Shown piece by piece: positions 10,112 through 26,566 of a DNA stretch of 27,306 bases (position 1 is its first letter; each line of letters starts with the position of its first letter). The stretch is taken from the IMG/VR virus record IMGVR_UViG_3300000301_000054; one strand, 5' to 3'. The position numbers and the translations under genes are program-made. The notes under the pieces are model-generated. The model was not told where the DNA came from, did no database searches, and was given only the letters and a program-made list of their open reading frames with translations. This DNA comes from a virus. Lineage: Duplodnaviria > Heunggongvirae > Uroviricota > Caudoviricetes.

Positions 10112-10248
10112 GTGTTTTTCTCTTCTTTGCTGTTACATAAGCACTACCAAGTGCTGGTTATTTTCACAAATAAGAAAAGGTAGAAAACAATTTATTTAAG
10201 GCCACAACTTATGGCCTTTATTTATTCATGCCGAAGGATTTGTAGCGT

Positions 10249-14095: not shown

Positions 14096-14463
14096 CTAAC
14101 CGTATTTCCATTAATAGTAACTGTTGGAACAGNNNNNNNNNNNNNNNNNNNNNNNNNNNNNNNNNNNNNNNNNNNNNNNNNNNNNNNNNNNNNNNNNNNN
14201 AAATTAATGTAGTTGTCGTTGTTAAGAGGCATCAATGACCACACGGCATGTAGCGATTTACCCGGTGGCGGATTGGAGTACGTCTTAGAGCCTGATGACG
14301 CAGTAAATCGATCAAGAAANNNNNNNNNNNNNNNNNNNNNNNNNNNNNNNNNNNNNNNNNNNNNNNNNNNNNNNNNNNNNGGAAGCCAGTAACGTTAATT
14401 CCTTTATTGTTGTAAATCCCTGTACCGTATGCCATTTTTCATCCTTGTTTTTTATCAACACAA

Positions 14464-14487
14464 TATGGCCGATCATGCGGCCATATC
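14464..14487 (-). promoter_or_regulatory. Perfect palindrome ATATGGCCG-ATCATG-CGGCCATAT in the 55-nt spacer between the gene ending at 14491 and the ATG at 14435
   Basis: 9-bp arms, 6-nt centre; followed on the minus strand by AAGGA SD and ATG. Confidence 0.5.
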
Positions 14488-14490
14488 AGA

Positions 14491-15060
14491 TCAATTAGAG
14501 CTTTGAAAGGCTTTGTGTGGCTGTGTTGCGAGGTTATGTCGATGGCTTAACTCACGCATCATGTCTTCAAGCCGACTCTTTGTGTCGTCGAGTTGGTCGG
14601 CCATTGCTCCCAAAAGCTGACGAACGGCCATCGGATCATCGCTGTTTAGTGATGGCATTTTATAACCCGCCTGAGAAGACATAAGATTGAACGCAGACAT
14701 CAACATCGTTAGAGAGGATTTAAGCCCAGCAATTTCACGATCTTTGCTGGCAATAATCGCCTCACTCTTGTTAGTGTCATCAGTTCGTTGAGTCTCGCTC
14801 ACCATATCCAAAGTCGCCTGCAACTTATCAGCGCGCTCTTTTTCAGCAAGATAATGAACACCGAAATGATGTGCTAAAGCTACAACCTGAGTTGGCTCTT
14901 CAAAGGTGGACTCAAAATTAAGTGCTGTAACCACTCTCTCAAATATGGAAACGTCTTCTATTCCTCGAAGAATGGCTAACATTTTGACCAGTTCATTAGC
15001 ATCCATTTCTTCGAATAAGGCGTTTTGTTCATCAGCTATCGCTTTGCATTTCTTGCACAT
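14491..15060 (-). CDS. Hypothetical protein (189 aa)
   Basis: Leader carries the palindromic element 15079..15091 and an AGGA SD. Confidence 0.5.
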   Translation of the reverse strand: MCKKCKAIADEQNALFEEMDANELVKMLAILRGIEDVSIFERVVTALNFESTFEEPTQVVALAHHFGVHYLAEKERADKLQATLDMVSETQRTDDTNKSEAIIASKDREIAGLKSSLTMLMSAFNLMSSQAGYKMPSLNSDDPMAVRQLLGAMADQLDDTKSRLEDMMRELSHRHNLATQPHKAFQSSN

Positions 15061-15078
15061 GTGTTTTTCCTAATGCTT

Positions 15079-15091
15079 AAACAAGTTGTTT
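15079..15091 (-). promoter_or_regulatory. Palindromic leader element AAACAA-G-TTGTTT, about 20 nt upstream of the ATG at 15060
   Basis: Perfect 13-bp palindrome; adjacent GTTGTTTTCTTATTGG also occurs at 1049..1064. Confidence 0.5.
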
Positions 15092-15176
15092 TCTTATTGG
15101 CTTTATTGTGATGTGGCATAAAAGGGGAGCAAGCTAAACGTAAAGGTGCAAACTCTCTATTTCGGTCAACGAAACA

Positions 15177-15196
15177 CAAGGGCCATTTGGCCCTTG
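15177..15196 (-). terminator. Hairpin CAAGGGCC-ATTT-GGCCCTTG downstream of the small membrane ORF
   Basis: 8-bp stem; partially U-rich tract follows on the minus strand. Confidence 0.4.
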
Positions 15197-15202
15197 TCAT
15201 TA

Positions 15203-15358
15203 ACACGTTGCTTTACGGACTAGCGGATAAGCGAAGTAGATCGCCAGACCAATGAGGACGCCATCAGAAATGACAGACATCATCTTTCCCGTAAAATCCA
15301 CCAACACCGCCATCACCAGAAGAGCAATGACGATCACAAGCCGGAATCTCTCAAGCAT
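15203..15358 (-). CDS. Candidate small hydrophobic protein (about 51 aa, MLERFRLVIVIALLVMAVLV...), start overlapping the stop of the TerB-like gene
   Basis: ATG at 15356..15358 overlaps the TerB-like gene stop (15358..15360) by 1 nt; two hydrophobic stretches. Confidence 0.35.
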
Positions 15359-15783
15359 TAGAGATAAGCATCCAGTGACAACTGAAGCGCCTGGGCGATC
15401 TTTTTAAGTGCCTGCTCTTCTTGTTCACCAATGCCGTCCTGATCGGCAATATCAAGGCACAGACACAGTACATCTACTGCATCATTAGTCCCGGCCACAT
15501 CAGCCAGCTCACGTAAAGCCTGGGCATTAGCGCGGCGCGGTGAGGCTTCGTATTGAGCACGGATATTGGCGCTCATTTGGGCAATCTCACCAGCAAACGG
15601 AGAAAACGCAGGCAGAGCTGCAATTGTTTTCTCAAGAATGGAAATTTCCTTTGCGTCGCATGTGCCATCGGCATAGGAGATCATGTACGCGCCCCACACG
15701 GTGGCTTCAACCGCATCTCGGTTCTCCATTTTTTTGACCTCGATAACAGCTTTACGAGTTTTCTTTTTGAATAAACCTAACAT
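15358..15783 (-). CDS. TerB-like (tellurite-resistance TerB fold) protein
   Basis: Duplicated ADG-type motifs MISYADGTCDAKEISILE and LDIADQDGIGEQEEQALKKIAQALQL typical of TerB-like domains; palindromic element and AAGGAA SD in leader. Confidence 0.55.
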   Translation of the reverse strand: MLGLFKKKTRKAVIEVKKMENRDAVEATVWGAYMISYADGTCDAKEISILEKTIAALPAFSPFAGEIAQMSANIRAQYEASPRRANAQALRELADVAGTNDAVDVLCLCLDIADQDGIGEQEEQALKKIAQALQLSLDAYL

Positions 15784-15806
15784 GTGCTTTCCTTTTGTTA
15801 TTTGTT

Positions 15807-15821
15807 AAAACAAGTTGTTTT
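15807..15821 (-). promoter_or_regulatory. Palindromic leader element AAAACAA-G-TTGTTTT, about 24 nt upstream of the TerB-like ATG
   Basis: Perfect 15-bp palindrome. Confidence 0.5.
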
Positions 15822-15876
15822 CTAGTTACATGAATTGCTTACGAAAAGACGGTCAATGCATATGCACTAACAACCG

Positions 15877-16065
15877 TCAGAAATAACCAAGTACCGAACC
15901 AACTGGAAAAACAAAAATCCCAACAACACGAGCCAAGGTCATACCAGCCTGAAACTGGAGATCGCCAGAGCAAACAAGTTTTATAATGTTCGATACCCAA
16001 CCGGCGGCCATGAGGGCAAGAATTGCCAGCCAAATTTTTCCAAAGTGATTTGAAAACCAGTTCAT
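15877..16065 (-). CDS. Small membrane protein (62 aa, two hydrophobic helices)
   Basis: MNWFSNHFGKIWLAILALMAAGWV...; ATG overlaps the stop of the upstream small gene (ATGA). Confidence 0.4.
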   Translation of the reverse strand: MNWFSNHFGKIWLAILALMAAGWVSNIIKLVCSGDLQFQAGMTLARVVGIFVFPVGSVLGYF

Positions 16066-16280
16066 ACAACCGCCTTAGTCACAACATGATCCTGAGTAAC
16101 TGGATGAACTTGAGGTATCGCATCCACCGTCATCCCATCCAGAGTGACAGGACGCTCTACTGGAGTGGTGGTAATTGTCGTCGACGGAGGTGTGGTGATG
16201 GATGAATCCGGCATCAAAAGGCTCTGGCCGGCTGGAACGGCTACCGTCGCCAGTGAAACTATAATGAGAACGTAGGCCAT
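16062..16280 (-). CDS. Small secreted or lipoprotein-like protein (72 aa from the internal ATG; signal-peptide-like N-terminus, Thr/Pro-rich middle)
   Basis: MAYVLIIVSLATVAVPAGQS...; AAAGAGG SD 9 nt upstream of the ATG at 16280; stop overlaps the next start. Confidence 0.4.
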   Translation of the reverse strand: MAYVLIIVSLATVAVPAGQSLLMPDSSITTPPSTTITTTPVERPVTLDGMTVDAIPQVHPVTQDHVVTKAVV

Positions 16281-16569
16281 TGGTTTCAGCCTCTTTCTTT
16301 GAAAATTTTCCATTCGAACTGTCCTTGTTGTTTTTCTCCTTCACTAAAGGCCGTGCATTTTTCGCTTGGTGTGAAGAACCAGAGGTAACAATCGCCCCCA
16401 CGTTCGCAACAACTGACGCTTGCTTATCTAAACGTTCATTCAGCAACCGAACGGTAGTCTCCAGTTCATCAAGACGTGACAGAACACGACCGCTAAATAA
16501 TTCGGCCAAAATTTGACGTAGTGAACGAGGACGTTTAGTTGCAGAAGTGAAATAGGTTTGACGTGCCAT
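16075..16569 (-). CDS. Hypothetical protein; only the N-terminal half (coiled-coil LSRLDELETTVRLLNERLDKQ) looks protein-like
   Basis: The 3' half overlaps the better-supported 16062..16280 gene in another frame; true end uncertain. Confidence 0.3.
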   Translation of the reverse strand: MARQTYFTSATKRPRSLRQILAELFSGRVLSRLDELETTVRLLNERLDKQASVVANVGAIVTSGSSHQAKNARPLVKEKNNKDSSNGKFSKKEAETNGLRSHYSFTGDGSRSSRPEPFDAGFIHHHTSVDDNYHHSSRASCHSGWDDGGCDTSSSSSYSGSCCD

Positions 16570-16714
16570 GTGGACTCCATCCAGTGTCAGAAAGAGTTGC
16601 GGCTGGCGATTGCCAGCCGCCTTTCTCGTTCCATCCTGGAACTGTGTCTTACCGACACATTGTCATCCTGACGCCGATAAGATACATGATTTAATATGAT
16701 AGGTAAACACTTAC

Positions 16715-17308
16715 TTACCACTTGTTGTAAATAAAACCAATGTCTTTCTTGTGAGGCGTATCGGCTGCGGAAAAAGCTGCGATCTTCGCGAGTCGATCAC
16801 ATATTTCATTTTCACGATGCCCGGCGTGACCTTTAACCCACTTCCAGCGAACATTATGTCGACTTGCGGCCTCATCCAGACGTTTCCACAGATCAACATT
16901 CTTTACCGGTTTTTTATCAGAAGTCATCCATCCATTACGTTTCCACCATTTCATCCACTGTGTCATGCCGTTTTTCAGATACTGGCTATCAGAGTACAAA
17001 ATAACGTTGCATGGATATTTCAAACGCTCCAGCCCGATAAGTGCGCCCATCATCTCCATGCGGTTATTGGTGGTGCTATGAAAACCATCTGAGAACTCGC
17101 GTTCCTCACCACGATACTGGAGAACGATACCGTAACCACCCGGGCCACCCGGATTTTTAAGGCAAGAGCCATCACTGAAGATTTTCACGGTTTTAAGCTG
17201 GGGATTGAACTCTACGACAGGCGTTGTGGGATTGGTGCGGGGAGAATTTTTGTTTTTGGCTTTTTTGCGAGTTTTTGCTTGCGATCGGGCTGGTGTCTTC
17301 GTCGTCAT
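16715..17308 (-). CDS. rnhA: RnhA-type ribonuclease H with a basic N-terminal extension
   Basis: [65 protein letters not shown] align along E. coli RNase HI; ATG at 17308 with AGGAG 6 nt upstream preferred over the ORF-track start at 17359. Confidence 0.8.
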
Positions 17309-17966
17309 ATAAACTCCTGAATCAAGCGCCGCGCCGATTTTTTCCTCGCGCGTGCGCACACGCGTGCGTGTTAATAATTATTAAAATAAACAAATTACTT
17401 CCCAGAACAGGTTTTTATAAACCTGAACTGAACGAACGAAGTGAGTGAAGTTCACCTCGAACGAAGTGAGAGGTTGTCTTTTCAGGTAATACTCTCCCAG
17501 GGAGGTGAGTACAAAATTTCCTCACCAACCTGGTCGTTTCATAACCTGAAAAGTTATGACCTAAGTCTACTGCCAGCTTAGGCTTGGGAAGTTATGGATG
17601 ACAGCACCCCAGAACCGAGATCTTCCCACACTTTATGAAGGGGAGTACTGGATTCAACCTCTCGAAACACTCCAGACTCGACAATCATAAAGTGACCCTT
17701 CTNNNNNNNNNNNNNNNNNNNNNNNNNNNNNNNNNNNNNNNNNNNNNNNNNNNNNNNNNNNNNNNNNNNNNNNNNNNNNNNNNNNNNTTTGGTTCCCCCT
17801 TCCCCAACCCCTAAACGGTGCCGGTTCTACGCTGGTAGTGAGCTTTTTTAAACCTGACGCCAGTGACGCTTACCCCCACCCATCAGGTCGAGTCTCCAGT
17901 CTACGACTGGAAACTATCAGATCTTAGCACTTACAATTCACTTTATAAATAGTTTGTACTTATCTA

Positions 17967-26483: not shown

Positions 26484-26516
26484 GTGTTTTTCCTTTTTCT
26501 TTTTTTGGTGCGTTTA

Positions 26517-26527
26517 AACAAGTTGTT
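26517..26527 (-). promoter_or_regulatory. Palindromic leader element AACAA-G-TTGTT upstream of nrdB; GTTTAAACAAG direct repeat at 26513 and 26538
   Basis: Same element family as 2528, 2578, 15079 and 15807. Confidence 0.45.
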
Positions 26528-26566
26528 ATCTTATGTGTTTAAACAAGGCTTACAAATCAAAGAGAA

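Follow-up and report, generated by a model that had tools for sequence, protein, structure and literature searches.

A tciA-tciB cassette as exchangeable cargo beside a putative nested gene pair in an SSU5-type phage-plasmid

The virus record IMGVR_UViG_3300000301_000054 (Caudoviricetes) has a length of 27,306 nucleotides (nt), and this whole stretch is called the window in the following. A preliminary description had combined five small open reading frames (ORFs) around a TerB-like gene into one cluster and had proposed that it is a candidate module for superinfection exclusion or abortive infection. It was verified that all of the described ORFs exist on the minus strand. However, they are not one module, but two adjacent, separately inherited minus-strand units, because the tciA-tciB cassette is separable cargo, while the trio of genes upstream of it persists with other cargo or with none. 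The upstream unit A (16569-15877) belongs to the backbone and contains orf164, orf83 and orf62, while unit B (15822-15176) contains tciA and tciB. The genes of both units and the downstream flanking gene are:

orf164, 16075..16569, minus strand: soluble protein of 164 amino acids (aa) with no hydrophobic segment; GGAG Shine-Dalgarno motif 5 nt before the ATG; phrog_10411 (E 7e-77)
orf83, 16062..16313, minus strand: nested wholly in the +1 frame of orf164; phrog_15659 (E 5e-48)
orf62, 15877..16065, minus strand: 62 aa, two hydrophobic helices, coupled to orf83 via ATGA; phrog_6006 (E 2e-25)
tciA, 15358..15783, minus strand: TerB family protein of 141 aa; AGGA Shine-Dalgarno motif 6 nt before the ATG
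tciB, 15200..15358, minus strand: two-helix membrane hairpin of 52 aa (DUF3927), the start of which overlaps the tciA stop (TAATG)
orf189, 14491..15060, minus strand: conserved backbone gene (phrog_5508), downstream flank of a variable slot

The element is an SSU5/pHCM2-type phage-plasmid, as follows from its identity to the phages Cyrano and PhiR41_1, from the neighbouring genes, and from its non-mobilizable IncFIB plasmid relatives. The 3 kb around the locus were 96-97% identical to four phage records, and the nucleotide identity to Escherichia phage Cyrano, which is the phage-plasmid pLF82 of E. coli LF82, was 97.3%. Cyrano and PhiR41_1 have a size of about 108 kb each, and the neighbouring genes encode RNase H, a Dam-type methylase, the epsilon subunit of DNA polymerase III, dihydrofolate reductase, ThyX and a DUF4942 protein. 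The related records include hundreds of non-mobilizable plasmids, and the fetched examples were IncFIB plasmids of about 105-120 kb. All of the region's genes are encoded by the minus strand. Seventeen stretches of 61-207 nt in the window are masked as N runs, several lie within ORFs, and ORF lists and translations across these runs are unreliable; the interval 14400-17700 is free of N runs, apart from the run listed at 17703-17787.

The cargo slot and its borders

The gene order in related phage-plasmids was rnhA, orf164/orf83, orf62, slot, orf189 and DUF4942. The content of the slot differed between lineages:

tciAB: the window, Cyrano, Klebsiella pF77_2 and Cronobacter
nothing: Citrobacter
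a Rha-family regulator: Salmonella; the Kluyvera loci have an unannotated ORF of 271-280 aa at the same position
other genes: metagenomic contigs

The slot corresponds to the interval 15060-15880 of the window, and its content varies at the loci L005, L006, L008, L045, L046, L048, L050 and L051. In two lineages, Klebsiella pLH99-d-B and Buttiauxella (L007 and L049), orf62 was cut by recombination. A scan of genome contigs for relatives of orf164 yielded only three loci, all of which belonged to one known lineage. Likewise, tciABC counts among the eight hypervariable regions of P1-like plasmids, and about half of these plasmids lack it (PMC9603915).

The cassette is flanked by direct repeats of 21 nt, which are 729 nt apart (15803-15823 and 15074-15094) and carry a palindrome. 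The signals around the two units are:

16599..16620, minus strand: hairpin with a T-run, 9 pairs of which 8 are G-C, between rnhA and orf164; putative rnhA terminator and upstream boundary of unit A
15852..15871, minus strand: weak hairpin just past the orf62 stop, 8 pairs of which 3 are G-C
15806..15822, no strand assigned: palindrome AAACAAgTTGTTT, operator-like, in the leader 24 nt ahead of the tciA ATG and within one copy of the 21-nt repeat
15176..15197, minus strand: intrinsic-terminator-like hairpin ACAAGGGCCAAATGGCCCTTGT with a T-rich tail directly after tciB; end of the cassette
15074..15094, no strand assigned: second copy of the 21-nt repeat with the palindrome at 15079-15093; promoter-like leader of orf189 and right border of the slot

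The stem at 16599..16620 was conserved in other lineages, as judged from translated leader ORFs. The palindrome AAACAAnTTGTTT had 8 matches in the window on both strands, compared to an expectation of 0.11, and the copies lie upstream of six minus-strand genes or operons (2528-2593, 10183-10197, 15079-15093, 15806-15822 and 26516-26530). Thus, the palindromic element that had been described before is real and non-random, but only one of the two leaders that had been said to carry it belongs to the five-ORF cluster, while the second copy heads orf189 further downstream. At these sites and in related loci, the palindrome was part of a repeated promoter-like unit, which consists of TTnaCg-CCTTTT, about 11 nt, GAtAAT, about 13 nt, AAACAAnTTGTTT, 10-25 nt, and the ATG. 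The copies of the window usually lie 13 nt past a GAtAAT box and 10-35 nt ahead of the ATG. The region 2528-2593 contains two copies, one of which (2577-2593) overlaps the -35 region, and the same arrangement was found at locus L049. The palindrome was present 25-83 nt past the orf62 stop in every lineage, regardless of the cargo, and it was absent from the tciA loci of P1, LMessi and SP-076; it therefore belongs to the SSU5 backbone and not to the cassette. It is a candidate operator of a dimeric repressor at or just after the transcription start, and the whole set looks like the operators of one repressor over the early genes of SSU5-type phage-plasmids.

In the lineages with Rha cargo, a hairpin of the form AAGGGCC-loop-GGCCCTT, which resembles the terminator after tciB of the window, follows about 30 nt past the palindrome. 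The arrangement looks as if tciAB had been excised, or had never been inserted, between the leader and the terminator.

TciA and TciB

The earlier call of a TerB-like protein was right. TciA matched the Pfam family TerB (PF05099) over residues 33-136 with 32.4 bits, compared to a gathering cut-off of 24.4 (E 1.2e-7). In addition, it matched phrog_632, "tellurite resistance" (E 7e-63), and it is 83% identical to TciA of P1. The hydrophobic peptide and the TAATG overlap were also found as described, except that the peptide has 52 instead of 51 residues. It matched DUF3927 with 48.3 bits (cut-off 25) and phrog_1470, "TciB-like" (E 3e-21). The Cyrano annotation already labels the two genes "P1 TciA-like" and "P1 TciB-like". 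TciAB is therefore a known and widespread phage accessory module, of which the window contains one more copy, while the nested gene pair and the slot bounded by operator-like palindromes are mildly new.

An AlphaFold2 model of TciA had a predicted local distance difference test score (pLDDT) of 88.4 and consisted of a disordered basic tail, MLGLFKKKTRKA (residues 1-12), followed by a bundle of six helices. The underlying alignment was shallow, because all relatives among the matches listed in two wide protein searches were at least 63% identical. The top match of the model in a Foldseek search of the PDB was 2h5n (PG1108), with a probability of 1.0, a template modelling score of 0.53-0.60, and a weak E value of 0.016. 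We take 2h5n to be a representative of the TerB-like fold, and the fold predicted for TciA is all-alpha and TerB-like. A search of the PDB with the TciA sequence retrieved just sub-threshold matches to centrin and EF-hand proteins. The residues D39, G40, E46, G117 and E122 were invariant in seven divergent phage homologues, and they form two acidic D-G...E motifs, which are proposed as putative metal-binding sites. Conserved features of TciB are a VDFTxK loop or turn, an intramembrane S..DG in the second helix, and a WP/YP-L-x-K end, and according to the positive-inside rule both ends of the hairpin would face the cytoplasm. The idea that TciB is a fragment of TerC was dropped, because a comparison of the TciB family with phage TerC using hhalign revealed no similarity. 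A TciA-TciB fusion protein (P0093), which had been a Rosetta-stone lead, turned out to stem from one Logan assembly in which the P1 genes are frameshifted.

Homologues of TciA were found in 97 phage records, including phages of Escherichia, Erwinia, Klebsiella, Pseudomonas, Salmonella, Vibrio and others. In all 26 records for which tblastn matches to both proteins were listed, TciB was encoded directly after TciA on the same strand, and no more than about 160 nt separated its end from that of the TciA match; these records include P1, P7, D6, lambdoid and N4-like phages, and Salmonella phage Arash. Inspection of individual loci revealed a hairpin protein after TciA in P1, D6, the lambdoid phage LMessi, the N4-like phage SP-076, the Erwinia jumbo phage ChrisDB, Pseudomonas phiK7B1, and Pantoea LIET2. 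The carriers thus comprise temperate as well as strictly virulent phages (N4-like and jumbo phages). The cassette was also present on 662 plasmids of PLSDB, 649 of which are non-mobilizable, and the PGAP names for the pair are "tellurite/colicin resistance protein" and "DUF3927 family protein". Judged from this linkage, tciA-tciB is a conserved evolutionary unit.

The genomic position of the pair differed between phage groups. In E. coli lambdoid prophages the order was Q, tRNAs, tciA, tciB, holin, holin and endolysin in the late operon, and in LMessi the pair likewise precedes the lysis genes. In Enterobacter prophages, cI and int flank the pair, which is part of the early-left operon, and in N4-like and jumbo phages it is located among early or replication genes and tRNAs. 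As a side observation, the pair was often found beside phage tRNA genes, i.e., in P1 (L003), D6 (L056), ChrisDB (L053), phiK7B1 (L054) and E. coli prophages (L060, L061 and L063), and one to four tRNAs are present between Q and tciA in the E. coli lambdoid prophages.

The closest known system is tciABC of P1. Apart from the identity of TciA, its TciB belongs to the same DUF3927/phrog_1470 family and follows directly with overlapping stop and start codons. Both loci belong to a hypervariable accessory portion of their phage-plasmid and lie downstream of elements of the repressor-operator type. In contrast to P1, there is no TciC-like ORF of at least 30 aa between tciB and orf189 on the minus strand of the window, and the terminator begins 3 nt past the tciB stop. 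In P1 the neighbours are upl/plp, tRNAs and ban, while no tRNA gene was found in the window, and the leader in the window bears the SSU5-type palindrome, which the P1 leader lacks. With the terZABCDE operons of IncHI2 plasmids, Klebsiella and E. coli, TciA shares PF05099, the all-helical fold, and the acidic motifs, but it is accompanied by one hairpin of 52 aa rather than by TerC, TerD, TerZ, TerA and TerE. Neither the 26 annotated features of the 15 kb around the match in Cyrano nor the eight scanned proteins of the window included another ter gene.

Expression and possible roles of TciAB

Transcript data are available for Cyrano, in which CYRAN_83-87 correspond to orf164, orf62, tciA, tciB and orf189 (PMC9928086, S1 Table). 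In a lysogen grown overnight in lysogeny broth (LB), these genes had values of log2(fpkm+5), with fpkm for fragments per kilobase per million, of 2.3-3.3, where 2.32 equals zero reads. In the same cultures the values were 6.8-6.9 for the neighbouring moron CYRAN_81 and 6.4-6.8 for CYRAN_45, the putative repressor, and after 1 h in fresh medium CYRAN_83-87 reached 4.5-6.0 (all values from PMC9928086, S1 Table). The authors' list of moron genes, which are transcribed more than fivefold above the prophage background, does not include CYRAN_83-87 (PMC9928086). Autonomous expression in the lysogen, by which a moron is recognized, was thus not seen in overnight LB cultures of the 97%-identical Cyrano. 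In the P1 annotation, the nearest promoters upstream of tciABC are those of ban, and these bear a C1 operator. Preparations of P1 virions contained TciA peptides (PMC9024508), and a P1 CRISPR interference study revealed that tciA, tciB and tciC are non-essential and dispensable for plaque formation (PMC10695390). The silence in the overnight lysogen, the position behind C1 and ban in P1, the operon positions in prophages, the virulent carriers, and the virion peptides together place the pair in transcription units of the lytic programme and not among autonomously expressed lysogenic-conversion genes.

These observations bear on the view of the preliminary description, which can be spelled out as a prophage system of superinfection exclusion or abortive infection that guards the lysogen, with the TerB protein as sensor and the small membrane proteins as blockers or killers. 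That TerB domains occur in defence contexts was confirmed, as they are present in the validated systems Shango, Bunzi and Dionysus, and Dionysus couples TerB to a membrane pore-former. The ter operon has been linked to phage inhibition and colicin resistance in the literature, and tciABC is hypervariable in P1-like plasmids, as are res-mod and sim (PMC9603915). In contrast, transcription was near zero in the overnight lysogen culture of Cyrano, the pair is also found in virulent N4-like and jumbo phages, and the five genes are not co-inherited. PADLOC-DB 2.0, including its Shango and Bunzi models, had zero families at E<=1 for TciA, TciB, orf62, orf83 and orf164, and searches of Pfam, PADLOC and NCBIfam revealed no toxin, nuclease or pore-former family for the proteins. 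Hence the TerB identity and the connection of TerB to defence stood, while neither the single module nor the protection of the lysogen did, nothing specifically supported abortive infection, and a guard of the lysogen is unlikely.

Shango (SngA), Bunzi (BnzA) and Dionysus (DinB with the pore-former DinC and DinA) share with tciAB the combination of a TerB domain and one or more membrane-embedded partners, and "membrane surveillance" is the role that has been proposed for TerB-containing anti-phage systems. Dionysus consists of a MAEBL protein with a transmembrane segment, a TerB protein, and a four-helix pore-forming toxin (bioRxiv 10.1101/2025.09.30.679545). Compared by this described architecture, tciAB has two genes only, and TciB is a two-helix peptide of 52 aa and not a four-helix pore-forming toxin. 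Furthermore, tciAB differs from the TerB defence systems in being encoded by phages, including virulent ones, and in being silent in the overnight lysogen culture.

As an alternative, it is tempting to speculate that TciA has its membrane partner in TciB, and that together they condition or protect the inner membrane of an infected cell while the phage develops, a notion that we regard as possible though doubtful. Both units would be under the control of the repressor-governed lytic programme. TciB would keep TciA on the inner side of the cytoplasmic membrane, or would there be the target that TciA regulates, and an association of TerB with the inner membrane has been described in the literature. 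The TerB domain could sense or buffer perturbations of the membrane or of divalent cations via its acidic motifs and the basic N-terminal tail. As a result, the inner membrane would stay intact and closed to superinfecting DNA, to pore-forming colicins, and to premature collapse until the phage's own lysis, and TciAB would be a minimal phage-borne Ter-like accessory rather than a prophage defence island. Small non-essential proteins of the lytic programme that reside in or at the inner membrane are also known from T4 (Imm and Sp) and lambda (SieB), and they would be functional analogues only. Phage-borne Ter genes have been hypothesized to serve in the competition with superinfecting phages (Iyer et al., 2021; PMC7824862). 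A role in the lytic programme is plausible, perhaps in membrane protection or exclusion. The explanation as a whole, i.e., the two-unit layout together with a lytic-programme TciAB that conditions or protects the inner membrane, is put forward tentatively, at a little less than an even chance.

Several observations weigh against this explanation. The literature gives tciAB no experimentally assigned phenotype, and the P1 tci names, including the label "inhibition of cell division", were given by homology. The case for a physical interaction of TciA and TciB consists of the conserved adjacency and the coupling of the genes. TciB diverges much faster than TciA (about 39% compared to 83% identity to P1), and the nucleotide similarity to P1 and P1-type plasmids ends at the end of tciA, and therefore the two genes could be exchanged independently; either a faster evolution of the hairpin or an independent reshuffling of the two genes would explain the divergence. 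CYRAN_83-87 rose about eightfold after 1 h in fresh medium in LF82, so that some expression in growing lysogens is possible (PMC9928086). A scan for sigma-70 consensus sequences revealed no minus-strand promoter before tciA or orf164, and the assumed control of tciA transcription is therefore derived from the palindrome and from the RNA sequencing data of the relative. Lastly, three phages have a TerB protein and no TciB. PMBT3 has no partner beside the TerB homologue, Zuri has a different one-helix protein of 67 aa in place of TciB, and in Vibrio phage vB_VpaP-MS02 (L055:378-1926) a gene for a TerC/Alx-family membrane protein is located immediately upstream of the TerB homologue, which is not followed by a TciB-like hairpin. 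Because the Vibrio phage pairs TerB with TerC/Alx instead of TciB, it is suggested that phage TerB proteins need some membrane partner, the identity of which can vary.

The Vibrio arrangement is also compatible with a takeover of host physiology, in which TciAB would block cell division (the "i" of tci) or would retune divalent-metal homeostasis via a TerC/Alx-type pathway. The EF-hand-like acidic D-x-D-G...E loops of TciA and the presence of the pair in the early-left operon of Enterobacter prophages would fit, since the early-left operon of lambda is the location of kil-type genes. However, the cell-division label stems from homology only and TciB has no profile similarity to TerC, and a takeover of this kind seems improbable. 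In the late operon of LMessi and of the lambdoid prophages of E. coli, the pair immediately precedes the genes for holin and endolysin, which would agree with an accessory of lysis timing or lysis protection, by which TciAB would tune membrane energisation for the correct triggering of the holin. In contrast, the pair is far from the lysis genes in the window, in P1, and in N4-like and jumbo phages, and no holin or antiholin families were matched, so that such a role is quite improbable. It would also be conceivable that the phage TerB acts as an anti-defence decoy that mimics or titrates host TerB surveillance systems, because host defence systems employ TerB domains and the phage copy is found in many virulent phages and early regions. 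This idea is purely speculative, it leaves the obligatory membrane-hairpin partner unexplained, and TciA showed no similarity to the TerB models of defence systems in PADLOC, and it has very little probability.

The proposed membrane role of TciAB could be extended to both units. In such a joint "mini-Ter" arrangement, a lytic-phase TerB sensor docked on the hairpin would seal or condition the inner membrane against DNA injection or pores, orf164/orf83 and orf62 would be a second set directed to the envelope, and cargo would be exchanged at the operator palindromes; we consider this combination rather unlikely. TerB domains have lately been found in several validated anti-phage systems with no known mechanism. 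Among the natural units of TerB and a membrane partner, tciA-tciB is the simplest, and it is carried by P1, the classic transducing phage of E. coli, as well as by hundreds of clinical phage-plasmids; thus it offers a tractable route to the role of TerB at the membrane. The cargo slot, the silence in the overnight lysogen, and the virulent carriers argue against labelling such genes as prophage defence.

Nested reading frames in unit A and neighbouring features

The coiled-coil protein of the preliminary description corresponds to orf164. An AlphaFold2 prediction from the single sequence yielded one long helix (residues 17-63, pLDDT 73-95), which was followed by about 100 residues of low confidence, and the C-terminal half is rich in Ser, His, Asp and Cys and predicted to be disordered. 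However, the gene is not consecutive with the signal-peptide gene as had been described, because the latter nests wholly inside it. An analysis of hydrophobic segments revealed a signal-peptide layout in orf83, hydrophobic segments in orf62 and TciB, and none in orf164. In orf83, the basic n-region MENFQRKRLKP is followed by a hydrophobic core (within the span 8-34, using a window of 17 residues) and a cleavage-like site, VPA-GQ, past which a Thr/Pro-rich stretch and a conserved LDGMxxDxIP motif are located. The protein had been described with 72 aa, which corresponds to the second ATG at 16280, but the ATG at 16313, which is preceded by an AAGGA Shine-Dalgarno motif 8 nt upstream and yields 83 aa, is more likely to be the conserved start. 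The described coupling was found to be correct, as the TGA of orf83 (end 16062) overlaps the ATG of orf62, and the two hydrophobic segments of the 62-aa protein were found as well. The within-clade polymorphism of orf62 comprised 11 non-synonymous and 21 synonymous changes. Only orf164 is annotated as a coding sequence in Cyrano and PhiR41_1 at the place of the nested pair, where PGAP and most annotators call orf164 alone.

The nested arrangement was compared in five lineages with a nucleotide divergence of 30-45% and in-frame indels. In all five of them orf83 lies in the +1 frame of orf164 and both frames are open, and the signal-peptide layout, the purine-rich Shine-Dalgarno motif and the ATGA coupling are kept. 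In the part of orf164 outside of the overlap, codon position 3 was the most variable, as is usual in genes (48, 54 and 47 differences in three lineage pairs). In the overlap, position 3 of the orf164 frame (frame 1) was least or nearly least variable (20, 23 and 24), while position 3 of the orf83 frame (frame 2) was most variable (31, 36 and 36). The change at synonymous sites of frame 1 fell in the overlap, from 48 of 85 to 20 of 79 (p=7e-5; 1e-5 and 2e-3 for the other two pairs), and, with few exceptions among the pairs, the amino acid identity in the overlap was higher for frame 2 (55-66%) than for frame 1 (40-57%). All of this argues that frame 2 is real.

Frame 1 ends at the same place in all lineages. 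If frame 2 alone were coding, frame 1 would have stayed open in 3-15% of synonymous resamplings per lineage. When the resampling was conditioned on ancestry and confined to differing codons, the values were 3-29% per branch, with a product of about 7e-4 over a chain of four branches, a rough figure that ignores dinucleotide bias. In addition, silent positions of frame 2 changed somewhat less than silent positions of frame 1 outside of the overlap (p = 0.03, 0.03 and 0.27). In the overlap, frame 2 had codon-usage log-odds of +0.16 and frame 1 of +0.01, while the third frame had -0.56. Real genes, by comparison, reached 0.37 (5-95%: 0.16-0.55). The off-frames averaged -0.39 and -0.49, and both overlapping frames exceed their 95th percentile, which is -0.18. 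Most probably, both nested frames are coding, and we hold this with reasonable though not full confidence.

The competing explanation is that a single frame is real, i.e., that orf83 is a by-product of the composition of orf164, or that orf164 has, in its C-terminal half, just a read-through tail without meaning. When frame 1 was resampled synonymously, chance alone left frame 2 open in 11-76% of the cases, and the overlapping part of frame 1 is the one that is predicted to be disordered and has the codon-usage score of just +0.01. The within-clade polymorphism of the overlap in the E. coli clade was balanced, with 6 changes that alter both proteins, 5 that are silent only in frame 2, and 7 that are silent only in frame 1. 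Against it stand, for frame 2, the suppressed synonymous change in frame 1, the shifted variable position, the higher identity, and the conserved translation and export signals, and for frame 1 the small chance of staying open and the shared end. A single coding frame is accordingly the distinctly less probable case. Programmed frameshifting from orf164 into orf83 was rejected, as it would need a +1 shift, a prfB-like site is lacking, and orf83 has its own conserved Shine-Dalgarno motif and ATG. The protein P0016 (locus L044) was discarded as a chimeric translation from a frameshifted assembly. The pair is mis- or half-annotated in public records, and it would slightly extend the list of overlapping phage genes.

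If all three genes of unit A are translated, the products would be a cytoplasmic helical protein, an exported or anchored Thr/Pro-rich protein, and a two-helix membrane protein. The layout resembles Rz/Rz1 of lambda, in which a small exported Pro-rich protein is likewise encoded wholly within the gene of a longer helical protein in the +1 frame, and a gene for a small membrane protein adjoins in unit A. In contrast to Rz/Rz1, an N-terminal transmembrane helix is missing from orf164, orf83 lacks a lipobox cysteine (and has no cysteine at all), unit A is located among replication and early genes (RNase H, methylase) and not in a lysis cassette, and no spanin family was matched. A reading of orf164/orf83 as spanins was rejected, because the defining features are absent. 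The same holds true for orf62 and TciB as holins, as no holin family of Pfam or PHROGs was matched and the neighbours are RNase H, orf189 and DUF4942.

A scan of the whole window against Rfam matched no family, the window has no tRNA gene, and an NCBIfam search of the proteins had no result above the cut-off. The RNase H gene upstream of unit A (16715-17359, minus strand) encodes a basic N-terminal extension of low complexity of about 55 residues, and the Pfam RNase H match covers residues 57-195. The annotated starts of this gene vary among relatives, with products of 197-216 aa. Of the genes in this neighbourhood, only CYRAN_81, an ORF of 44 aa upstream of rnhA, was strongly transcribed in the LF82 lysogen, with about 117 normalised counts compared to a background near 7. 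Its counterpart in the window is located at about 17577-17711 on the minus strand, partly under the N run 17703-17787, and just downstream of it a direct repeat of 13 nt, CGAACGAAGTGAG, is present at 17433-17445 and 17458-17470.

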